NCBI GenBank assembly: GCA_039924845.1
Contig: JBDTAC010000041.1
Span: 728 to 64,727, forward strand
Source: Bacteroidia bacterium
Lineage (GTDB): Bacteria > Bacteroidota > Bacteroidia > DATLTG01
DNA: 64,000 nt
Reading direction: 5' to 3'
Positions 2,654-59,413 of this stretch are shown piece by piece; position 1 is the first letter of the stretch, and the number at the start of each line of letters is the position of its first letter. The notes under the pieces are model-generated. The model had not been told where the DNA came from, did no database searches, and saw nothing but the letters and a program-made list of their open reading frames with translations. A program made the position numbers and the translations under genes.

Positions 2654-3322
2654 TTATTTTTCTTCTTCTTTTTTCAAATCCTTTTTGCTAACCTGCTCCA
2701 TTGGAACATTTTTATTTACAGGGCGAACATGAACAGCGTGCCCTGTTGCTCGTGTGCCTTGTATTACGTAACCTGTACTGCCGCATCTGTTGCCATAAAT
2801 ACAGCGAACTGTATCGCCATCAATAGGAATAGTTTCGTTTTTTACTTCTTTAACTTTAGTGAAATAAAAATAATACCCTCCACAATCATTTAGCAAGGTG
2901 TCTCCTTTCAAGTAAAATGCTGCACAATCATTCACGCACCCAAATTTCCCAATGCTATCCACAGGTTCAATAACTTTTATTTTTGAAAGTTCTTTCGTTG
3001 TATATGTGTAAACTAATGGATCTTGTGAATCTAAATTTACGGTATCATATTTAGTTACTATCCAATGATCGAAATTGCACCACTCAATGAAACTAATATT
3101 ATTGTAATAGTATGTATGCTTTTCCACTGTTAATATAGATGCTTGAAGTTTGCGCGCCTGTTCCGGAGTTAAATTTTCATATCCTCTTGCATCTAACTTT
3201 ACACATTTCCATTTTCCGTATAGATATTTACTTGGAGCATTTTTTAATTGTTGTGCATAACAATTGTAACACAGTATAAGTGTAGAAAAAAGAAGTAATT
3301 TTTTACTGACCATTGTTTTCAT
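2654..3322 (-). CDS. Secreted (signal-peptide) protein, putative immunity to the lysozyme-type toxin
   Basis: The internal start MKTMVSKKLLLFSTLILCYNCYAQ reads as a signal peptide. The ORF overlaps the 3' end of toxin 3 on the same strand. An alternative start is at 3313. Confidence 0.55.
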   Translation of the reverse strand: MKTMVSKKLLLFSTLILCYNCYAQQLKNAPSKYLYGKWKCVKLDARGYENLTPEQARKLQASILTVEKHTYYYNNISFIEWCNFDHWIVTKYDTVNLDSQDPLVYTYTTKELSKIKVIEPVDSIGKFGCVNDCAAFYLKGDTLLNDCGGYYFYFTKVKEVKNETIPIDGDTVRCIYGNRCGSTGYVIQGTRATGHAVHVRPVNKNVPMEQVSKKDLKKEEEK

Positions 3323-4487
3323 ATATTCCATATAAAAAGATATTTTGTTCTGCAGTTCTCCTGTTTTGAAGTCCTTGTGAATACTCATTCCCTGAGGTAT
3401 TGACATCCATTTCTGATGCTGCTCCAGAAAAATCAGAATTATTTAGTTTAGCAATAAAATGCCTGCCTGCCGCAAGCGAATTATTTACGCCTACATTAAA
3501 CACATAACTTACAGTTGCATTAAACTGCTGCTGAGTAAGTTGGACATTAACGTAAGTATCAACTAAGATAATAGTTTTTTTTATATCAGTTGTAAATAAG
3601 GCATCTGCCTGATCTTGAGTAATACCTTGACTATAATCTTCTCCGCGCTGAACTACGTGTCCGTATCCTATTGTTATTTTACCCGTAGGAGCTTCACCTT
3701 GTTTCCAATATTTGTTTTTATCGTCATATTCTTGTAATGCAGGTCCTCCTTTAGGTCCTTGCTCATACGATTTGATAAAATCTTGTCCTTGAGTATTTAA
3801 CACTAAATCTTTTACATCTTTTTTAGAATCGGTTGTACTTGTCTTTTGATTTTCATCAGATAAACTTTTCTGATAATCTGCCATATCAGCAGCTTCTTTT
3901 TTCGGGTCAGCCCATTCCAAACCTTCTAAATCTTTTCCATCAATAACTCTGTCCATCGCAAAAGCATAAGGCGACCAACCCGCATATTTTCTCCTTAAAG
4001 GGTCTAAGCTCCAAAAGTGTATTAGGCGTGGGTCATCTTCTCTGAATTTAAAATCATAGGCGTTAGCATTGCCGTAAATATCATTGTCTTTGAGCTTTCC
4101 GTTGTATCCGAAGGTGTACAAGGAATCCTGATAATTCCTTCTCGGCATCAGCATACCGCCAGGATAGTAGTCATTGTAACTAATCACAAAAGCGGTACTA
4201 TCCGCATTCTTACGGTCTCTAACAATGGTGTGGACATTTCCTAAATGGTCATTCAGTTCGTATTCTTTCTTGAAGATTTTTCTTGGGAATAAACCATTGT
4301 TTAAACCAATATCAATTGTCCAAAGGTTTACAGGACAAGAAATGCAACTATACGTAGGAATACCACTGGTAGGGAACGTTTTCACTAAAATATTCGGTTT
4401 CCATTCGCCAAGACGTGAGCTTCCATAGAGTGGTACTTCTGTTTGTATGTAATCGTAATTGCTGCCGTTGATTTTATTTATCTTCAC
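3303..4487 (-). CDS. Rhs/YD core-end protein with a C-terminal GH24 (phage/T4-type) lysozyme domain (cassette 3)
   Basis: The core end reads YTFGYNGKLKDNDIYGNANAYDFKFREDDPRL..WSLDP. The tail has SYEQG...TIGYGH...ITQDQADALF...LTQQQFNATVSYVFNVG...GLQNRRTAEQNIF, the classic GH24 pattern. The listed start is GTG. Confidence 0.8.
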   Translation of the reverse strand: MKINKINGSNYDYIQTEVPLYGSSRLGEWKPNILVKTFPTSGIPTYSCISCPVNLWTIDIGLNNGLFPRKIFKKEYELNDHLGNVHTIVRDRKNADSTAFVISYNDYYPGGMLMPRRNYQDSLYTFGYNGKLKDNDIYGNANAYDFKFREDDPRLIHFWSLDPLRRKYAGWSPYAFAMDRVIDGKDLEGLEWADPKKEAADMADYQKSLSDENQKTSTTDSKKDVKDLVLNTQGQDFIKSYEQGPKGGPALQEYDDKNKYWKQGEAPTGKITIGYGHVVQRGEDYSQGITQDQADALFTTDIKKTIILVDTYVNVQLTQQQFNATVSYVFNVGVNNSLAAGRHFIAKLNNSDFSGAASEMDVNTSGNEYSQGLQNRRTAEQNIFLYGIYENNGQ

Positions 4488-4534
4488 TCAAAAATTATTT
4501 TTTGAAACCTCTTTATCTCTTTAAAAGTGTAAGC

Positions 4535-4552
4535 GCAAATTGGAACACTACC
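4535..4552. repeat. Inter-cassette element copy C (GCAAATTGGAACACTACC)
   Basis: It is identical to 1134-1151. It lies 7 nt downstream of the immunity stop at 4559 and upstream of toxin 3. Confidence 0.8.
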
Positions 4553-4558
4553 CACCCA

Positions 4559-5110
4559 CTACCTCAATTTTACTTTGTATTTAGTTAATACTTTATAAGG
4601 ATAAATTCGTTGCTTAAAACTATTAAATGTACGAGGTTTCCAATGAGTAAAAACAATAAGACCATCAGATATTTCTCCATAGTAAAAATTGTAACCACCA
4701 TAATCGTCTGTGGTATATATTTCAATAGTGATTTTTGTACCTTTTATTTTATAATAGCCAATAAATGCATAAGTATCACTATTGCTATTACATTCTTTAT
4801 TGGTCGGTTTGTGTTCGTAAGCATAACTTATCAATAATTTTCCATTATTAAAAAAACGGTATATCACATAAGATGAGTCCACAAAGTGTGATCCATAGTA
4901 TACGTCTGTATTAAGATTAAAATATACTGCATTCGTGTCTATCAAATTAGTATCAGCTAAATGATAGGGGTGTTTTGCAAAAGAGAAATTTGATTTTTTG
5001 GGACGTATTCCTCCATCGGGTAGAGTATAATAATGAGGTATCCATCCCATAATACTACAAGAGGTAAAATTAATAACTATAAAAAAAAAGAAAAACAAAC
5101 GCTTTGCCAT
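4559..5110 (-). CDS. Lipoprotein, putative immunity protein for the 5161-6084 toxin
   Basis: It has an ATG start and the lipobox-like N-terminus MAKRLFFFFFIVINFTSC. It lies 50 nt downstream of toxin 2. Confidence 0.55.
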   Translation of the reverse strand: MAKRLFFFFFIVINFTSCSIMGWIPHYYTLPDGGIRPKKSNFSFAKHPYHLADTNLIDTNAVYFNLNTDVYYGSHFVDSSYVIYRFFNNGKLLISYAYEHKPTNKECNSNSDTYAFIGYYKIKGTKITIEIYTTDDYGGYNFYYGEISDGLIVFTHWKPRTFNSFKQRIYPYKVLTKYKVKLR

Positions 5111-5160: not shown

Positions 5161-6084
5161 TTAATCATAATGGAATAACTTCAAGTCTTTAGAGTTGTGA
5201 ATATAATTTTGCAACCAGCCTGATCCGTAACTATCAAATAAAAAGCCATTTACTCTCCCAAAAGTATCTGCTTTATTCAATGATTGTTGAAAAGGATCTT
5301 GATCGTAATACAAACTTGTCGCAGTTCTTTGCTGGCTATTAGAACCAAAATGCGTGCCTGTAAAATCCTGATACCCACCTTCAAATAAATTTCCTCCTAA
5401 ATTCGCTGAAAAAATAATTCCACCTGTCCAACCTTGATCTGTGCCACCTCTTGCTCCAACCAATCCTTGAGTTGTTGTTTTATTTGTTGCTGAATTATAG
5501 TTGAGTATTTGACCATACGTTCCAGAGCCACCGAAAGTATTGTTTAACGCAGATTTGGTATTGAAATTTAATGTATATTGTGGCAGTCCAATACCCTTAC
5601 CACCACCAAAAGTTGCATAAGCTGATGTACTGATGTCGAACTGTATAGCTGAACTGTTTCCTGAAGTACCTAAACCACCATTATAAACATTGACAGACAA
5701 ATCAAGTGTTGGCTGAAAAAAGTTAAAACGCTGTCCTATACTTGCTGTTGCTCCTGCATTAAAAGTTAATTTATTACCTCCAAAAGTCAACCCTAAACTT
5801 GCTTCAAATCTTGCCTGAGGATTACCAGCCGTATTACCTTTCGGGTCGCTAAACCATATAGGATTATTACTAAAACCCGAATACAGGCTTTCCCACGCTT
5901 TTGGGGTCGGGTCTAAGCTCCACCAACGTCCGCCTAGGCGTGGGTCAAGCATTCTAAACTCGGCAGTATAGGCATTTCCAGTTCCATAAATCTCGTTATC
6001 CTTCTCCATTCCGTTGAATCCGAATCTACAGCCTCCTGTGCAGCAGGCTGTAGATTCGGACATCGTAGCGGTATTGCGTGGCAT
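5161..6084 (-). CDS. Rhs/YD core-end protein with a Gly/Asn-rich unrecognised C-terminal domain (cassette 2)
   Basis: It carries CRFGFNGMEKDNEIYGTGNAYTAEFRMLDPRLGGRWWSLDP...NPIWFSDPKGN, then a Gly-rich, apparently beta-rich tail. Only about 20 aa precede the core-end motif. An alternative ATG is at 6063. Confidence 0.75.
   Translation of the reverse strand: MPRNTATMSESTACCTGGCRFGFNGMEKDNEIYGTGNAYTAEFRMLDPRLGGRWWSLDPTPKAWESLYSGFSNNPIWFSDPKGNTAGNPQARFEASLGLTFGGNKLTFNAGATASIGQRFNFFQPTLDLSVNVYNGGLGTSGNSSAIQFDISTSAYATFGGGKGIGLPQYTLNFNTKSALNNTFGGSGTYGQILNYNSATNKTTTQGLVGARGGTDQGWTGGIIFSANLGGNLFEGGYQDFTGTHFGSNSQQRTATSLYYDQDPFQQSLNKADTFGRVNGFLFDSYGSGWLQNYIHNSKDLKLFHYD
6019..6060 (-). other. Perfect 16-bp inverted repeat (42-nt hairpin) inside the first 22 codons of toxin 2
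   Basis: TCCGAATCTACAGCCT (6019-6034) pairs with AGGCTGTAGATTCGGA (6045-6060) around a 10-nt loop. It begins right after the internal ATG at 6063. Confidence 0.9.
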
Positions 6085-6195: not shown

Positions 6196-6603
6196 TTAAA
6201 TACAATCAATAAAAGTAGATATCCCGATACCTCTTAATACAAGCATAATTATATAAAATAAGCATATAATTATATTTATCTTAGCCGTCCAGTTTGTAAT
6301 TTTATGATAGTTTTTATTTCTCATTATGTATTTTAGAAATAGTTTATTTATGGAGTAAATTATAAATATCAAAACACCTGTTTCAGCAATTAATGCTATT
6401 GATTCATAAATAGCTGCTCCAGTTGAACCCCATATATCAATTCTCGAATTGTTATTCTTCCACATTAAATTAGCAGGAATAAATAAATCATTAAGATAAA
6501 CAGCTAACCACAGAAGAATGGGATAAGTTAATATTTGATACCCAAAATTATAAATACCATACAAGCCGTATAAAATATATTTTATATAATTATTGAACCT
6601 CAT
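6196..6603 (-). CDS. Polytopic membrane protein, putative immunity protein for the 6600-7556 toxin
   Basis: It has about 4 hydrophobic helices. The ATG at 6603 overlaps the toxin TGA stop as ATGA, which suggests translational coupling. Confidence 0.6.
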   Translation of the reverse strand: MRFNNYIKYILYGLYGIYNFGYQILTYPILLWLAVYLNDLFIPANLMWKNNNSRIDIWGSTGAAIYESIALIAETGVLIFIIYSINKLFLKYIMRNKNYHKITNWTAKINIIICLFYIIMLVLRGIGISTFIDCI

Positions 6604-7556
6604 TTGTTTGTAGCTGGTTTGCTGATGTGATTTTTGTTCCACTCTTTAAGAGTGTAGGTTTTACCACCATATTCGACACCTGTAAAATTTCCTTTAGAGT
6701 CAATATTTATTCTTACGTCAACAGTTCCAAGTTTCTTTGTGTTATCAAAATATAAACTTAAAGGATTTCCTTTAGCCCCCGAACCAGTTAACCAAACTGT
6801 TTGCCCTTTTGCATCACTTACCAATGCTTCGGTAGCGGGAAATTCTTTTCCTGATAAATCAACATAAGCAATCAAATAACCCGCTTTATCATTTTCCGCT
6901 AATATTACAGATGAATTTACTTCAATATTAGGAGCTGTCCCCAAAAGTGCAAGGTCGGGATTAGAACCCGAATAATGCGCTTCAACATCAGCTACATCAG
7001 AACCCGCATTTTTATAAAAAGTTTTGTTGTCTACTTTTCCTTTGTCTGTTGTGTGTGTTGCATTACCAACTGTTTTACCACTAGTTTTAGTATCGGAACT
7101 TGTTGGATGACCATTACCTATTACTGATTTTTTCGTAGGATCTACGGTATAAGTTTGACTAATACGCGATGTAACATTTTGTTCGGCAGAAAAGCCTCTC
7201 TTATCATCATCATAATCAAAGTATTTGAAAGCATCAGGTGGAACAAAAGACCTAACAGTAACAGCGAATGGAAATAAACCATCTGCATCTAAATAAAGAA
7301 TAGGATTAGAATAGCCATAAGAGTACGGAGACCAAAATGGAATTTTAGCTGCTAATTTATCCAAACTTAACCACCTGCCCAATCTCGCATCGTCCATTCT
7401 GTATTTGAAATCGTAGGCGTTTCCTATTCCACAAAGTTCGTTTGTTTTTTCCTGTCCGTTGAAGCCGAAACAATATGAATTTAGGTTTGATTTGTATCTG
7501 TTGTGTACAATTTTTTGTTGTTCATTTAGATTTTCATAGAAATCTACTTCGTCCAT
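6600..7556 (-). CDS. Rhs/YD core-end protein with an unrecognised C-terminal domain (cassette 1)
   Basis: It has an ATG start and carries YCFGFNGQEKTNELCGIGNAYDFKYRMDDARLGRWLSLDK...SPYSYGYSNPILYLDADGL, followed by a unique tail of about 220 aa. Confidence 0.75.
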   Translation of the reverse strand: MDEVDFYENLNEQQKIVHNRYKSNLNSYCFGFNGQEKTNELCGIGNAYDFKYRMDDARLGRWLSLDKLAAKIPFWSPYSYGYSNPILYLDADGLFPFAVTVRSFVPPDAFKYFDYDDDKRGFSAEQNVTSRISQTYTVDPTKKSVIGNGHPTSSDTKTSGKTVGNATHTTDKGKVDNKTFYKNAGSDVADVEAHYSGSNPDLALLGTAPNIEVNSSVILAENDKAGYLIAYVDLSGKEFPATEALVSDAKGQTVWLTGSGAKGNPLSLYFDNTKKLGTVDVRINIDSKGNFTGVEYGGKTYTLKEWNKNHISKPATNK

Positions 7557-7721
7557 TTTCGATTTTTATTGGTTTATATTCACTAACTTATTTATTGGCG
7601 AATATAATTAATTTTCAATTAATTTCTCATCTGCAAATTGAGGTATATCCCTAATACTCTAAAAAAAGAAGAGCTTCCTTTTTGAATATCCCTCCCCAAT
7701 TTATTATAAAGCAAGATTATT

Positions 7722-8036
7722 GTTTGATGGCGCATGTTACTCGTGTGATGGAGCATGTCATTTGTTTGATGGCGCATGTTAATTGTTTGATGGCACATGT
7801 TACTCGTGTGATGGCAGATGTTATTTGTTTGATGGCACATGTTATTTGTTTGATGGCAGATGTTACTCGTGTGATGGCGCATGTTATTTGTTTGATGGCA
7901 CATGTTATTTGTTTGATGGCACATGTTACTCGTGTGATGGAGCATGTTACTTGTGTGATGGCGCATGTACACTGTGTGATGGAGCATGTTATTTGTTTGA
8001 TGGAGCATGTACACCGTGTGATGGAGTATGTACATC
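7722..8036. repeat. Tandem repeat, 15 contiguous 21-bp units (GTKTGATGGMRCATGTWAYWY)
   Basis: The units were read directly and are in perfect 21-bp register with no spacers. Three overlapping ORFs (two plus, one minus) stay open across it. Confidence 0.95.
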
Positions 8037-8110: not shown

Positions 8111-10546
8111 TTATTTGCCTATCGGGAAAATCAGTTTAAAACCTACATTTCTGCCCATATTGTAAATACCTTGGCTTTGATTGGTTACGGTAACTATTCT
8201 GCCACCATAAGATAGGAAATAGTTTGCAAGATCTAAATGATCTGCATATCCTACATTGGTTAAATTAGTACAATTGATATACAATGAACAAATTACCCTG
8301 CCTGTTTTCGGGTTTACAAAATTGGTTCCTATACCTGCATTAAATAAAGTGTATGCGGCAGAAGGAATTTCTGTATAAAGTGCGCTGTAAATAGCATTTT
8401 GCGCCCAATATTTTGCTTGTCCTAACTTAATGTAGGTATCTTTTAATATGGAATTTGGTTTGTTATTCAAGTGAAGCTTCACTTCCGTAGTTATGTGCGT
8501 AGCAGGTATCCAAGGAATATGATCGGTTGAATCCGTTTGATTTGGCAGAAAGGAATAAATATACGTTAAGCCATTGTCTATTTCAATCCATTTTGTACTA
8601 ACAGGATGTATGTTGAAATACCCCGAAACTCCCGTAATGATAGCAACGTTGCTTGATACAAATTGGTAAACAGGAAGTCCGCCTGAAACAGAATCGGTAC
8701 GATCGCCAAATATGAAATTATTTATAATATTATAAAAACCATCGGCTTCAAAACTAAGGTCCTTCCCATTATTTCCATAGGCAATATCTAATTGATAGCC
8801 TTGTTCTGATTTTAAATTTAAGTTCCCTAACTGAACGGCATTGGAACCGATATTCTGACCATTGCTTGTTAATTCATTAATAGCAGGAGCTCGGTAACTC
8901 TTTGAGAAATTGAGTTTCAGATAATTATTATTTGGTAATTGGTAAGAAGCACCAACACTTCCGGATGGTCCGGTATACGTATTGTTAAATGGACTAAATT
9001 GTGTTTCTGCTCCCGGAGTTCCAGCCGAAACTTGCTGTTGTTCGGGAGTACCACTGTTTGTCAGATACATTCCTTGTCCAATAAAATTACTCCAATCGTA
9101 TCTCAATCCTCCACTTACTGTGAGATTTTTAAAATCTTTTTCTAAAATGGCATAAGCACCCGCTTGAAAATCGGTATAGTTCGGTATTTCATAATTACCA
9201 ATATAAGGCGCAGGTGGTTCCGCCAGTTGGTGCTCGAATTCGTAAGTCCCGTTTATGCCAGTGGTCAGTTTCAATCCTGATTTTTCTCCTATAATTTGAT
9301 ATTTCAAGGAATAAGGAATATCATATACCTGCATATTTCCTTCTCCAACACTTCCTGAATCAATGTCGTGGTGAACACTTTGGGTGAAACCAATATCTAT
9401 CCCAACTCTTCCAGTGCCTGCGTTAATACTATTTTGCCACCAAATTTGATTTTCATCCAAAATTTTATCTCCAGCAATGGTAGGATTGTATGCTAAGAAG
9501 TTGGATTTGTTTGGATATATCTGTCCATTTTGAGGAGCATCGAACATAAATTGTCCAGTTGCGCTGTCGCGATTACCATCCGGCACTTGAATTCGTCTGT
9601 GGAGCGCGCTTACTGTAAGTCGCGTATATCCCCAAGATTTATTCAGTCCAATTGTTAATCGCGCATTCGACTGTTGCCAAGCAGTTCCCCAAATATATCC
9701 ATCTTTTGGATTCCAGTAATCATGCGTTTCTTCGTTACTTGCTCTTAGGTTCCACACAAAATCATTATTATTTCCTCCAATATTTTCGGAGGTTCCGATG
9801 TATCCATCATTGGTATGATATTCTGTAAGCACGCTACCTTGCACCGTTCCGCTTTCTGCAAAAGGTTGCGATTTAAAGCTAATCACTCCCGCTTCGGCAC
9901 TTGCCCCATATTGTAAAGAAGCAGGTCCTCGAATAATTTCAGCATCATAAACAGCATAAGGATCTATCAAAATACCGTGGTCGTCTCCCCATTGAAAATC
10001 TTCTTGTCTTTCTCCATCCATCAACACTAAAACACGGTCAAATCCCAAGCCGTTAATTTGTGGCTTTGTGGTCCCAGAACCTTCCGTTGTTTCATTTACA
10101 CCAGGCTGAGAAGCCACGGCATCAATGGCAGTACTCGAAGTTTGTTGCAACATTACATCGTGAGATATCAGCGAAACAGGTACGGGAGAACGTTGCGTAT
10201 TGGTAACGTTACCCAATGCTGTAATCACCACTTCGTTAGCGGTACAGGCGGAAATACACATAGAACAAGTACAAGTGGTACTGTCCGTTATCATAACTTG
10301 TTGAGTTATGGTAGCATATCCCAAAATTTTTACTTCCATTTCATAAGTTCCTTTAGGGATAGGACTTATTCTAAATTCTCCATTTGAATTGGTAGTAGCA
10401 CCTAAATTAAGTTGCGGAATATACACCACGGCTCCCACTATTGTTTGATGGCTCAAAGAGTCTATAACAGTACCACTTAAAGACTGAGCCATTGCAACAT
10501 TGATTAACATCAATAAAGATGAAATCAATAAAAATATTTTTTTCAT
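8111..10546 (-). CDS. TonB-dependent receptor with an N-terminal carboxypeptidase-regulatory-like domain
   Basis: The signal peptide is MKKIFLLISSLLMLINVAMAQ. A CarboxypepD_reg-like segment (GTVIDS...NGEFRISPIPKGTYEMEVKILGY) is followed by a plug region and a long beta-barrel ending in an aromatic-rich C-terminus. Confidence 0.85.
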   Translation of the reverse strand: MKKIFLLISSLLMLINVAMAQSLSGTVIDSLSHQTIVGAVVYIPQLNLGATTNSNGEFRISPIPKGTYEMEVKILGYATITQQVMITDSTTCTCSMCISACTANEVVITALGNVTNTQRSPVPVSLISHDVMLQQTSSTAIDAVASQPGVNETTEGSGTTKPQINGLGFDRVLVLMDGERQEDFQWGDDHGILIDPYAVYDAEIIRGPASLQYGASAEAGVISFKSQPFAESGTVQGSVLTEYHTNDGYIGTSENIGGNNNDFVWNLRASNEETHDYWNPKDGYIWGTAWQQSNARLTIGLNKSWGYTRLTVSALHRRIQVPDGNRDSATGQFMFDAPQNGQIYPNKSNFLAYNPTIAGDKILDENQIWWQNSINAGTGRVGIDIGFTQSVHHDIDSGSVGEGNMQVYDIPYSLKYQIIGEKSGLKLTTGINGTYEFEHQLAEPPAPYIGNYEIPNYTDFQAGAYAILEKDFKNLTVSGGLRYDWSNFIGQGMYLTNSGTPEQQQVSAGTPGAETQFSPFNNTYTGPSGSVGASYQLPNNNYLKLNFSKSYRAPAINELTSNGQNIGSNAVQLGNLNLKSEQGYQLDIAYGNNGKDLSFEADGFYNIINNFIFGDRTDSVSGGLPVYQFVSSNVAIITGVSGYFNIHPVSTKWIEIDNGLTYIYSFLPNQTDSTDHIPWIPATHITTEVKLHLNNKPNSILKDTYIKLGQAKYWAQNAIYSALYTEIPSAAYTLFNAGIGTNFVNPKTGRVICSLYINCTNLTNVGYADHLDLANYFLSYGGRIVTVTNQSQGIYNMGRNVGFKLIFPIGK

Positions 10547-10610
10547 GAAATGATAATACTGTAATAAATAAAACTCTTTTGTTATTCTGAACATTTGAAG
10601 AATCTATTTT

Positions 10611-33705: not shown

Positions 33706-34887
33706 TTATTTAATCACTTCAAGGAACCCTTTCTTCACTTCCTTATTTGGTAAAGTTAATAGGTAATAATACGTTCCTGCATTTACTTCATCCGCTTTCC
33801 AATTGTTTTGATAATTGAGACTTTGGTAAACGTTATTACCCCAACGGTTATAAATAGTAAGCTCGCTGTTATCGGGTAAGTTCTCTATCACAAAATAATC
33901 GTTTTTGCCATCGTTGTTGGGTGTAATTACATTGGGTATTTGCAAGGTAGGCGGCGGACAAACGGTAACAGTTACCGTATCGGTGCTGCTGCAACCAGCG
34001 CTATCTTGCACACTTAAGTAATACGTTGTAGTTTGTGCAGGTTTTGCCCAAGGCTGTGCGCTGGTATTATTACTTAAACCTGTTGTGGGGTACCAATTAT
34101 AGGTAAAACCTTGCAAGACGGCTTTGCCCAATTGTACGCTATCTCCTTTGCAAATACTGCCACCCAAGCCTGCTGCACTATCGGGCAGCTCTATTACCGA
34201 AACATCATCGATGTAGTAAATTGCGCCGCCACCATTTAAGGTATCTCTAATATCTTCAAAGTGCAACTGGGCATTGTTATACACAAAGGTGCCGAGTGTG
34301 ATGTATTTTTCTCCTCCTTTTGCGGTAAAACTGCCCGATACGGGCATCCATTTGAGCGTATCGTTTAAATAATTAGTTACCGGATTATTCACTTGCGGCT
34401 GGAAGGAAAATGGGTAATTATTGTCATTGGTAATAGCTGTATCCGAAAAATAAGCTCCCATATCACTGATGGCGTAAGCATCATTGGCTAAATTCACAAA
34501 AAAGCGTACGCAGTATCTCTTCCCTTTTTGCAGCGGTTTTACCAAGGGTGTTTCCATGTATTCTCTCGCATTTGGAGGGGCTACCGACCATGCATAGCAC
34601 CTAATCAATGTATATGCATCTCCTGTTCTTGGATATTGAAAGCCAGCAATACTAAGCGGTACTCCTCCTCCTCCTCCCTGGGGTGCACAAGTATGATAAT
34701 ATTTATCATATTCATCACCGAAAAGAATAGAACAAAACCATGGGCTTTGACAGCTTATTTGCCCAATGTTTGGGCAACAGGTATGGTATTCAAAACTCGG
34801 ATTGGGTACGAGGTTTTGCACTTGAGCTTTTGTTGTAAAAGCCAAGAGGCAAAGCGAAAAAAGGAATAGAAAGAATGTTTTTTTCAT
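33706..34887 (-). CDS. T9SS type-B C-terminal-domain (gliding-motility-associated CTD) secreted protein
   Basis: It has a signal peptide. The C-terminus PNVITPNNDGKNDYFVIENL...LTIYNRWGNNVY...AGTYYYLL matches the CHU_C/TIGR04131-type pattern. Confidence 0.75.
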   Translation of the reverse strand: MKKTFFLFLFSLCLLAFTTKAQVQNLVPNPSFEYHTCCPNIGQISCQSPWFCSILFGDEYDKYYHTCAPQGGGGGVPLSIAGFQYPRTGDAYTLIRCYAWSVAPPNAREYMETPLVKPLQKGKRYCVRFFVNLANDAYAISDMGAYFSDTAITNDNNYPFSFQPQVNNPVTNYLNDTLKWMPVSGSFTAKGGEKYITLGTFVYNNAQLHFEDIRDTLNGGGAIYYIDDVSVIELPDSAAGLGGSICKGDSVQLGKAVLQGFTYNWYPTTGLSNNTSAQPWAKPAQTTTYYLSVQDSAGCSSTDTVTVTVCPPPTLQIPNVITPNNDGKNDYFVIENLPDNSELTIYNRWGNNVYQSLNYQNNWKADEVNAGTYYYLLTLPNKEVKKGFLEVIK

Positions 34888-35034
34888 CTGTTAGTTCAAA
34901 TCAAAGATACAGTTTTTCCTATGGTCTTAAATAAACTTCAACAGAATTTTCTGCGGAGGAGAAGTGAGTACTTTTAAAACGGAATTGCCTTGTTAAACAA
35001 GCGTCCTGAGAGGATAATAGCATTTATTAATGAG

Positions 35035-35307
35035 CTGTGAGTATCTTAGTCGCAGCTGTGAGTGTCTCAGTATGAACTGTGAGTGAGGCAGTATGAACTG
35101 TGAGTGTCTCAGTCTAAGCTGTGAGTATGACACTCAGAACTCTGACTAAGGTAGTATGAACTGAGAGTATCTCAGTATGAGCTGTGAGTGAGACACTCAG
35201 AACTCCGACTAAGGCAGTATGAGTTGCGACTAAGAAAGTATAAGCTGTGAGTAGGGCACTCGCAGTTCATTATTTGTTGGTATGAGTTGATACATAGCAA
35301 GAATGAA
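35035..35307. repeat. Non-coding array of 13 units in exact 21-nt register (CTGTGAGT-N-CAGTATGAR types)
   Basis: Unit starts were read at 35035, 35056, 35077 and so on to 35287. Stops occur in all plus frames, and no ORF of 60 aa or more is present. Confidence 0.9.
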
Positions 35308-35418
35308 CTGATACCATTTATTTATTAGTTCTTTTTTAGTAAATTTTAACACATGCTAAACAATAATGAGTTAATACTTGACGTTGTTAAACACGTTTAA
35401 CCCTAAAAACAAAAGAAG

Positions 35419-35835
35419 ATGTCGAAAAGAACCGTAAGTGTAACCCTCCCGCACAGACAGCCGGAAGAGTTATTGCGTCTTGCTCAACGCATCATGGAAA
35501 AGAGCGCAACAAATGAGGAAGTAAGTCCGATTGCCCAATCCGATTTGGCAGAATTGGAATTGCTTGCCACCGAAGCCGAAACCAATCGCACCCGCAGCAT
35601 ACACTTACGCGAAGAAAGCGAAAAGGATATGCAAGCAGCGCGCATCGCTTTGGGTATCGAGAAGGGGCAAACAGCCAGTAATCCGAACACCCTTACGTAT
35701 TTAGTTTCTAAAATGCGGGATGTTTTGCTCGCTCATTATCGCGGTAAAGAGGAACAGCTGAGTGAGTACGGCTTTAAGGTAGTAACCAATTCCTTTTCGC
35801 CAAAAGGCAGAAGCATTAAGATTGTGAAAGAATAA
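35419..35835 (+). CDS. Hypothetical protein (no family recognised)
   Basis: This 138-aa ORF has an ATG start, visibly higher G+C than its neighbours, and a strong terminator immediately after it. Confidence 0.55.
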   Translation: MSKRTVSVTLPHRQPEELLRLAQRIMEKSATNEEVSPIAQSDLAELELLATEAETNRTRSIHLREESEKDMQAARIALGIEKGQTASNPNTLTYLVSKMRDVLLAHYRGKEEQLSEYGFKVVTNSFSPKGRSIKIVKE

Positions 35836-57661: not shown

Positions 57662-59413
57662 ATGAAAAAAACATTACTCATTGTCAGTATTCTTTTTTTG
57701 AGTGCATTTTTTGTAAGTGCCCAAGTTCCACAAGGAATTACTTATCAAGCAATCGCTCGTAATTCTGTAGGCGTTGAATTAGCAAGTACTGCTATTCAGG
57801 TAAAATTTACTATTCACACAGGCACTGCTGCCGGACCAATTGAATGGGAAGATACGCAAAGTACAACCACCAACCAATTTGGTTTATTTACACTTGTTAT
57901 AGGAAGTGGTACATCTACAACAGTAGGCTCTGCGACTACTTTTTCTGCTATTAACTGGGGGAGTGGAAATCATTTCCTCGAAGTATCTGTCAATATTGGC
58001 TCCGGCTATGTTTCTATGGGGACAACACAATTTATGTCTGTACCTTATGCTTTGTATGCAGCCAACGCACCACAAGGTCCGACTGGTCCAACAGGACCTA
58101 CTGGAGCGACGGGTGTAACAGGATCAACTGGAACTGCGGGTACGAATGGCGTAACGGGTGCTACTGGTCCAACAGGTGCAACTGGAACTGCAGGTACGAA
58201 TGGTGTAACGGGTGCTACTGGTTCAACAGGGGCGATTGGAACAAATGGTGTTACAGGACCTACGGGAGCAACTGGTTTTTTACAATCCGGCACTACAGGT
58301 TCTGTACCTTACTACAATGGCACTAATTGGGTTACAACCGCAACAAATATTTATGATTTAGGAAGCAATATTGGTATTGGAACCAATACTCCTAACAATT
58401 TTATTCAAGTACAAGGTTTAATTGATTTTGAAAACAATGGCTCTAACGTTAGCTTGGGCTTAAACACTCCCACAACAACGTCCTCAACAGGAAATTATTA
58501 TAATACTTTTGTTGGTTACAATGCAGGACAAAGCACTTCTGGCGCTGGTGGTGCTTCGGAAACATTTATTGGGTACAATGCCGGCAATGCAAATACAGTT
58601 GGCGGTAACAATGTTTTTATTGGTGCCAATTCAGGATCTTTAAATACAATCGGGGTACAAAATAGTTTCTTTGGCTCCACAGCTGGCAAAATAAATACAA
58701 CAGGATCTGGCAACACTGCAATTGGTTATAACGCCACTTTTTCTACAAACAATTTAACAAATGCTACCGCTATTGGAGCAAATGCCGTTGTCAGTGCCAA
58801 CAACGCCTTAGTACTTGGTTCTCCAGGAACCATGGTTGGTATTGGAACTAGCAACCCTAGTTATTCACTTGATATCGTAAATACTAGTTATAATTTATTG
58901 CACTTAAGCACAACTGGAGCCAACAGTAACGTTAATTTAGATTTCTCTCCAACGGGAGCTGGGATTGCACAATTTAGTGCAATTGGTTATGGATTTTCAT
59001 TTGTCACACAAGGATCAACTCCTGCTATTTTTGTGAACAGCAGCAACAATGTGGGTATTAATACAAACAGCCCTAATACTAATGCTGCCTTGGATGTAGA
59101 AGGGTTTACAAAAATGGGAAATAATGCAAATGCTCCAATTATCCAAATGGAAACATTAACTGGTACTACATCCGCTACAAGCGGAGGAACTGTAGCTATT
59201 CCTCATGGACTAACTTCTACTAAAATTTTGTCGGTTACTGTTTTGGTTCAATATTCACCTAACAATTTTATTCCTCCTGAATATAAACTCAGTACAAACT
59301 ACCAATACAATTTTTACATCAGCAATACAAATATCGTAGTTTGGTCATATACTGGGAATGACGCTAATATTTTAGGAAAACCACTTACAATATTGATAAC
59401 ATATTCAAATTGA
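57662..59413 (+). CDS. Secreted collagen-triple-helix-repeat fibre protein with a beta-helix-like repeat region and a globular C-terminus
   Basis: It has a signal peptide and about 20 uninterrupted G-X-T triplets ([16 protein letters not shown]...). These are followed by short Asn/Gly/Ala-rich repeats (IGYNAG, IGANS, AIGANA) like those of fibre or adhesin heads. Confidence 0.75.

Follow-up and report, generated by a model that had tools for sequence, protein, structure and literature searches.

The present analysis concerns a 64,000-nucleotide stretch of the 74,792-nt contig JBDTAC010000041.1 from the assembly GCA_039924845.1 of a Bacteroidia bacterium, the whole of which is referred to as the window. 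It contains an intergenic region of 531 bp (34888-35418) that is occupied by an array of 21-nt tandem units and bordered by a minus-strand CHU_C gene of the type IX secretion system (T9SS; 33706-34887) and the plus-strand gene of a 138-amino-acid (138-aa) protein (35419-35835). The divergent setting described in the initial annotation is thus confirmed. Comparison with distant relatives of the gene indicates that the array and the downstream gene are a conserved, previously undescribed two-part module, which recurs in divergent genomes including metagenome-assembled genomes (MAGs) of Bacteroidia and Cloacimonetes. The features of the locus are the following:

34989 to 35001, no strand: palindrome CTTGTTAAACAAG on the array side that faces away from the 138-aa gene, which holds the first copy of the direct repeat TTGTTAAACA; its membership in the module is uncertain.
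35030 to 35265, no strand: array core of eleven well-kept units (starts 35035+21n), in which three kinds of unit build a higher-order repeat of 63 nt: a short palindrome, CTGAGA-GTA-TCTCAG or CTGTGAG-TGT-CTCAG, a long palindrome, CTGTGAGT-N5-ACTCAG, and CTCYGACTAAGG; the junction motif is GTATGAR.
35243 to 35277, plus strand: terminator-like hairpin in the last good unit, with 10 pairs (35243-35267), -12.7 kcal/mol, z-score -3.3 and a T-rich tail.
35266 to 35390, no strand: decayed units toward the gene in the same 21-nt register, with ATGAR-YTR junctions at 35282, 35303 and 35366.
35340 to 35347, plus strand: candidate promoter -7 box TAAATTTT, the best match (7/8) to TAnnTTTG between the array and the 138-aa gene.
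35386 to 35401, no strand: inverted repeat GTTAAAC-AC-GTTTAAC, 17 nt before the ATG, which overlaps the second TTGTTAAACA copy (35384-35393); a possible operator.
35419 to 35835, plus strand: gene for the 138-aa protein (pI 8.0) of an unnamed family, the sole neighbour that is conserved with such arrays.

The 21-nt array is real and non-random. Its 13 to 14 units, a count that derives from one MAG assembly, abut head to tail and fill positions 35030-35310 in exact register. Laid out from 35035 in steps of 21 nt, they comprise 11 recognisable units (35035-35265) followed by two to three decayed ones (starts 35266, 35287 and 35308) that keep the register, and the junction motif ATGAR-YTG is traceable at 35030+21n as far as 35366. 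The program TRF recovered a period of 21 at 35030-35189 and, with higher scores, a period of 63 at 35030-35222 and 35086-35261, which together with the unit layout corroborates the register from 35035 proposed in the initial annotation. The units read CTGTGAGT-N4/5-(C)AG/ACTCAG-TATGAR in alternation with CTCYGACTAAGGYAGTATGAR. The pairs of type I and type II units that had been described as 42-nt super-units are genuine (starts at 35119 and 35182), but they recur every 63 nt, and the higher-order unit is therefore three units long rather than two. Short-read Logan contigs of the same organism (SRR24716215; L052, L053) end at about 33514 and 35795 of the window and flank the array.

Over the whole array the match fraction amounts to 0.57 at lag 21 and 0.67 at lag 63, and the best 126-nt segment reaches 0.82 at lag 63 versus a maximum of 0.46 in the Markov-1 null. 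The pattern CTGTGAGT-N4-CAGTATGA, allowing at most three mismatches, occurs eight times in the 64-kb window, always within the array, versus an expectation of 0.17. A heptamer sub-period of the TAACTGA type (PMC4679880) was dismissed, as there is no signal at lag 7 and only the lags 21, 42, 63 and 84 exceed a match fraction of 0.4. The same applies to a CRISPR array, since the 21-nt units abut without spacers.

The family of the 138-aa protein is large. An exhaustive profile search retrieved 377 cluster representatives at E <= 1e-3, 247 of them at E <= 1e-10, a word-indexed search yielded three close relatives, and the nearest relative (P0004) is 93% identical at the protein level. No match of the 138-aa protein was found in Pfam, NCBIfam, PHROG or PADLOC and no sequence relative in the PDB; pattern-based scans of genome, metagenome and viral collections were likewise negative, and no family member turned up in the plasmid, phage and IMG/VR collections. 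Our comparison is based on seven independent family loci, i.e., the window and six mutually distant members, which are listed here with the identity of the encoded protein to the query:

L054 (P0019, 41% identity): array at 976-1143 with eight 21-nt units; gene start at 1242.
L055 (P0056, 40% identity): array at 494-617, 40-41 nt x 3.1; gene start at 944.
L056-58 (P0065, 36% identity; three samples): array at 3373-3650 with thirteen 21-nt units in 42-nt alternation; gene start at 4001.
L059-65 (P0182, 33% identity; GC-rich organism): array at 2669-2836 with eight degenerate 21-nt units of the type yCGACCG-N-CGGTCGG; gene start at 3001.
L066-68 (P0168, 39% identity; Cloacimonetes MAG): array at 2163-2400 with eleven to twelve 21-nt units; gene start at 2501.
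L069-72 (P0177, 38% identity): no array and no significant periodicity; gene start at 2501.

Significant periodicity of 21, 42 or 63 nt is present about 100-350 nt upstream of the gene in five of the seven loci (window, L054, L056, L059 and L066). In each of these arrays the observed periodicity tops every other lag and is reached by none of 200 Markov-1 nulls, and 390 kb of control DNA from unrelated prokaryotic loci contained no array with a period of 21 or 42 and a length of at least 100 nt. The unit sequences are unrelated between the loci, the palindrome arms (6-8 bp) and loops (3-6 nt) vary, and the period of the five arrays is nevertheless kept at multiples of 21. The units of an array are heterogeneous: in four of the arrays, identity at the period amounts to 51-70%. 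The flanking genes, among them genes for T9SS cargo, glycosyltransferases, restriction-modification enzymes together with cytochromes, and VWA proteins, differ completely from locus to locus, and the conserved unit is thus the array plus the gene. Near-identical strains from different samples have the same number of units in the related loci, which speaks against hypervariable arrays. A unit consensus common to all loci was discarded: the best cyclic alignments, made by hand, yielded 10-12 matches of 21, which is borderline for quasi-palindromic AT-rich units. The unit of the window gave 51 single chance-level matches and no array in 185,579 species genomes (596 Gb), and no match in metagenome and viral collections.

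This distribution bears on the idea that the array is a neutral minisatellite, generated by slippage or unequal recombination, whose adjacency to the gene is incidental. Such an origin would agree with the degenerate units that decay toward one end, with the 63-nt higher-order structure, which is typical of expansion by block duplication, with an intergenic-like rate of single-nucleotide polymorphisms (SNPs) in the array of the L059 locus among close strains, and with the second array of the same period at 7720-8035 of the window, which lacks a family gene. It leaves unexplained why arrays occupy the same place beside the same gene family in six of seven independent loci versus none in the control DNA, and why period and dyad symmetry are conserved and the unit number is constant among strains. 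We therefore regard a neutral minisatellite as very improbable.

Even less credence is due to a decayed heptad-repeat protein gene or a source of short repeat peptides, the former of which had been among the roles proposed in the initial annotation. The period equals seven codons, one minus-strand frame is nearly open with heptads of the LTVHTET type, and the minus-frame peptides HSQFILR/YSQLILS resemble HNHLIMP/HSQLILP in a plus frame of the L054 array. However, the similar peptides are read from opposite strands with respect to the gene, and their resemblance is a consequence of the approximately 50% DNA identity of quasi-palindromic units. All six frames of the window array contain stops, the longest open reading frames (ORFs) comprise 46, 42 and 40 aa on the minus strand, and the search against Pfam was empty, so the earlier statement that the array is non-coding holds. 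In addition, the arrays of L054, L055 and L056 lie outside the called genes. It is the recurrence of arrays beside the same gene family in distant genomes that speaks against both the minisatellite and the decayed gene. As a side observation, heptads with cysteine at a fixed position can be read in one plus frame each at 34982 of the window (SCECLSM), at 7600 of the window (CDGACYL) and at 3302 of L056 (SSGCLIL), and the heptad frame of the window array has TGA where other units have TGT or TAT. These readings are probably a by-product of the DNA motifs; selenocysteine or a recoded TGA in the cysteine-rich plus frame was rejected, since stops of other kinds are present too.

Comparison of the window array with its own reverse complement revealed symmetry centres every 10.5 nt. 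The dyad symmetry is lost when the alignment columns are permuted (2 of 300 permutations reach the observed value) and kept when the order of the units is shuffled (72 of 200 shuffles), which substantiates the inverted repeats that had been noticed within the units. For the five 21-nt arrays of the family the column permutations that reach the observed symmetry number 2, 7, 2, 19 and 6 of 300, with a marginal result for L059 (19). As RNA, the whole array folds better than shuffled sequences on both strands (z-scores -5.5 and -6.8), but the helices are long-range pairings between different units. We discount this fold as evidence for RNA because unit-order shuffles match the dyad symmetry and because the local folds are unremarkable: single units range from -1.5 to -6.7 kcal/mol with z-scores between 0.06 and -1.95, and the 63-nt super-units (z-scores -0.2 to -0.3) are no better than shuffles. 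The hairpins can be put down to the dyad symmetry of the units rather than to a folded RNA. The only strong one among the array units is located at 35243-35267, and together with its T-rich tail (to 35277) it looks like an intrinsic terminator on the strand of the gene. None of the Rfam 15 covariance models matched the window or the six related loci at the gathering score, and a permissive Rfam scan returned chance-level matches only (E 2.2 to 9.4). The comparison of G-T with A-C mismatches gave a strand bias that is inconsistent between the arrays. The structured repeat RNA or protein sponge suggested in the initial annotation is weakened by these results.

The main rival of the DNA lattice proposed below is that the array is transcribed on the strand of the gene into a repeat RNA that partners the protein, either as a new pair resembling type III toxin-antitoxin (TA) systems, with a repeat RNA antitoxin, a leaky terminator and a protein toxin, or as an RNA that either titrates the protein or becomes coated by it. 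Type III TA loci (toxIN, cptIN, tenpIN) consist of repeats, terminator and gene in this order, with repeats of 31-62 nt in 1.9-5.6 copies and gaps of up to 340 bp (PMC3401426). The order of tandem repeats, terminator-like hairpin and small gene fits these published locus criteria loosely. The super-units of 63 nt (about 3-4 copies), 42 nt (4.3 copies) and 40 nt (3.1 copies) agree in copy number, and with respect to length 40 and 42 are inside the range and 63 is one nucleotide over. A tandem array upstream of a small gene is present in the window and five further family loci, the repeats of homologous loci are unrelated in sequence as in type III systems, and a terminator-like site between array and gene was found in the window and, by consensus scan, in L056 (3634-3651). 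Restriction-modification genes adjoin the module in L059 and L066, reminiscent of the occasional defence-island context of type III loci, and the basic termini of the protein would suit the binding of RNA as well. The unit hairpin of L066 shows weak covariation (reached by 25 of 500 shuffles) and a recurrent T-G pair on the plus strand, which may reflect a hairpin or, equally, variants of symmetric half-sites.

Several observations argue against a repeat RNA. Counted by its basic unit of 21 nt, the array (13 copies in the window, up to 15 overall) is outside the published range, and the units are dyad-symmetric and heterogeneous, whereas known antitoxin repeats are much less heterogeneous. The protein is all-helical and not ToxN/Kid-like; it has no match to ToxN, CptN, TenpN or PADLOC models and no PDB neighbour. 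Folds of units and super-units that do not surpass shuffles, the lack of Rfam matches and the inconsistent wobble-strand bias point in the same direction, and an RNA fold would leave unexplained why the period is locked to multiples of 21 in spite of varying hairpin geometry. Moreover, consensus scans found no terminator-like site after the arrays of L059 and L066, and in L059 a promoter-like site separates the array from the gene. In sum, we consider a repeat RNA rather unlikely, but far less so than the minisatellite or the decayed gene.

The 138-aa protein itself was modelled with AlphaFold 2 (AF2) from an alignment of 51 sequences. The model (pLDDT 92.5) is all-helical, with helices at 15-31, 40-78, 92-106 and 111-117, an extended N-terminus (KRTVSVTLP) and a C-terminal YGFKVV followed by a basic tail. 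The family is basic (median pI 9.2), and the basic residues are concentrated at the N-terminus and in the C-terminal tail. Most of the best-scoring representatives (P0009-P0157) are tandem two-domain proteins of about 250-270 aa, and other members comprise about 340-440 aa with C-terminal CarboxypepD_reg, PKD or other beta-sandwich-like segments; an obvious N-terminal signal peptide was absent from the inspected family sequences. The model of a natural two-domain member (pLDDT 96, pTM 0.84) contains strands at 6-9, 120-126, 129-135 and 246-249, with just two residues between the C-terminal strand of domain 1 (120-126) and the N-terminal one of domain 2 (129-135). This predicted layout suggests a covalent version of a head-to-tail contact between single-domain subunits. 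Foldseek detected no significant neighbour of the single-domain and two-domain models in the PDB or BFVD. A ribbon-helix-helix (RHH) fold, prompted by the N-terminal KTVRVxIP...ELLxLA, was rejected, as there is no RHH match in Pfam and the two-domain model has four strands from both termini instead of one N-terminal ribbon strand per domain.

Taken together, we propose, with about an even chance of being right, that the array is a lattice of sites on duplex DNA, in phase with the helix, to which the basic and probably self-associating 138-aa product binds. Each 21-bp unit would correspond to two helical turns with a short dyad-symmetric core, placing successive sites on one face of the helix and symmetry centres every 10.5 bp. 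The small helical protein, whose subunits would be joined through N- and C-terminal beta-strands, might assemble cooperatively along this lattice just upstream of its own promoter, and the likely product would be a large nucleoprotein complex with a role in autoregulation of the gene or in marking or organising the locus. What has been observed is that gene and array are associated, that the 21-bp phasing is conserved, that the arrays are dyad-symmetric and that coding or known-RNA signals are absent; from these sequence features we infer the protein as the binder, DNA rather than RNA as its target, and the role of the complex.

Duplex DNA is favoured for several reasons. The sole feature that is conserved across the unrelated units is the two-turn period with dyad centres every 10.5 bp; DNA helical phasing explains such a fixed period, which an RNA fold does not obviously require. 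The units are heterogeneous to a degree that operator and iteron arrays tolerate, the local RNA structure is unremarkable, and the strand bias of the mismatches is inconsistent. Finally, the consensus scan of L059 located a sigma-70-like promoter (TTGACT-17-CATTAT) between array and gene, and the array therefore lies upstream of the promoter. Of the roles that had been suggested initially, the multi-site landing pad of a regulator is accordingly the favoured one, given that relatives of the gene are accompanied by arrays of their own, which are phased at 21 nt and dyad-symmetric but unrelated in sequence.

Other findings weigh against a DNA-binding lattice. Profile searches with Pfam, NCBIfam and the PDB recognised no DNA-binding domain in the protein, which also lacks a structural neighbour, and the CarboxypepD_reg, PKD and other beta-sandwich-like extensions at the C-terminus of many members are unusual for DNA-binding proteins. 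In the window and L056, a terminator-like hairpin marks the array end that is nearer to the gene, as would be expected for a transcribed array, and the weak covariation of the L066 unit hairpin is a further point on this side. The period of L055 is 40-41 rather than 42, L069 has no array, and the sample of family loci amounts to seven only. Among close strains of the L059 locus, the array has accumulated 4 SNPs in 168 nt and the gene 0 in 414 nt.

The lattice can be compared with the partition sites and replication origins of plasmids. Examples are parC/ParR of R1, the 20-bp tandem repeats of pSK41 and the iterons of plasmid origins, which are spaced about 22 bp apart. A further one is sopC/SopB of F, with 12 repeats of 43 bp that each contain a 16-bp inverted repeat (PMC3177203). 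The window array shares with them many tandem units at whole helical turns, each with a short dyad-symmetric core (CTGTGAGT...CAGTATGA in the present case), and a nearby gene for a small protein, the sequence specificity of which would change together with the array; the expected outcome in both cases is a nucleoprotein complex of higher order that forms cooperatively. Yet no NTPase of the ParA/ParM/TubZ type and no Rep initiator or other replication gene is adjacent in the window, the protein matches no RHH, helix-turn-helix (HTH), ParB or winged-helix (WH) Rep family of Pfam even at E up to 10, and the loci are situated among ordinary chromosomal genes where the neighbours are visible (in the window a CHU_C T9SS protein, a PNGase-like T9SS protein and an RND pump). 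Most centromere and iteron arrays of plasmids are, moreover, shorter than the 8-15 units reported here. With the REP/BIME elements of enterobacteria, which are dispersed in hundreds of copies per genome and linked to RAYT transposases, the array has in common that short imperfect palindromes of alternating types are clustered in an intergenic region, but its unit is confined to its own array within the 64 kb and its spacing is strictly periodic.

The module thus falls outside every named family considered. By analogy, the array would work most like a binding lattice of the iteron or centromere type and least like a neutral repeat. A more far-reaching and only tentative proposal, to which we assign a rather low probability, is that the module is either a small helical protein of new fold that polymerises head to tail on a private, helically phased 21-bp lattice beside its gene, forming a chromosomal nucleoprotein filament with a self-contained epigenetic, organising or centromere-like function, or a fourth, structurally unrelated family of type III-like repeat-RNA TA or defence systems.

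The sequences that flank the array are less conspicuous. The 10-nt motif TTGTTAAACA occurs as two identical, palindromic copies in direct orientation, one on each side of the array (34990 and 35384). The palindromes that the initial annotation had placed at the array ends are present, but their interpretation as operators lacks statistical support: TGTTAAACA occurs three times in the window versus 1.64 expected, a count reached by 24 of 100 shuffles and thus not demonstrably beyond chance, and the second inverted repeat (35386-35401) is no rarer than chance. Operators are a possible reading of both sites. No flanking motif comparable to TTGTTAAACA was evident by eye in the other family loci. 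A target-site duplication of a mobile element was also considered for TTGTTAAACA and rejected, because a 10-mer repeat within 540 nt is estimated not to be rare and the gene lies outside the pair. The Bacteroidota consensus of the -7 promoter box is TAnnTTTG, which makes TAAATTTT a candidate for the promoter of the 138-aa gene.

The second array of the window (7720-8035), which had been described as unrelated to the first but of the same 21-nt period, is non-coding and consists of about 15 units of 21 nt that form a higher-order repeat of 63 nt (TTGTTTGATGGCRCATGTTAY); four of its six frames are open. The 21- and 63-nt periods are indeed shared, but dyad symmetry is absent, its level being reached by 120 of 300 permutations, and the 138-aa gene has no relative nearby. 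It represents a different kind of array, which has only the period in common with the one at 35030. Its neighbours, both on the minus strand, are a gene for a TonB-dependent receptor (8111-10594), whose 3' end faces the array, and an orphan Rhs toxin cassette (6600-7556), which faces it with its start. This cassette and a second orphan Rhs C-terminal toxin cassette at 5161-6084 both carry the RHS repeat-associated core motif (TIGR03696); between the two, a small hydrophobic ORF (6196-6642) looks like an immunity gene. A further tandem repeat of the window (58090-58242, period 27/54) resides in the long ORF 57662-59413 and is probably coding, with GTG-rich triplets. Two observations concern the related loci. 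In L056 another tandem repeat (4516-4633, 50 nt x 2.4) is found about 100 nt downstream of the family gene. At L059 (1-2467) the near-identical strains represented by L061, L063 and L065 differ by a swapped restriction-modification island directly upstream of the module, composed of a DNA methylase plus Vsr or of a methylase plus Mrr plus MvaI/BcnI, and homology resumes at position 2467 of L059.

The recurrence of the module provides a family of 377 cluster representatives, which has been devoid of annotation, recognisable domains and structural neighbours, with a concrete partner, namely a phased repeat array that keeps its 21-bp geometry although its sequence varies between genomes. The module is thus a direct route to the function of the family, and a new recognition code could be worked out from the matched protein-site pairs that its loci naturally supply. 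A DNA target would make the module an unusually long chromosomal operator or a centromere-like lattice with a new fold as its builder; an RNA target would take the repeat-RNA/protein systems beyond ToxN-like toxins.

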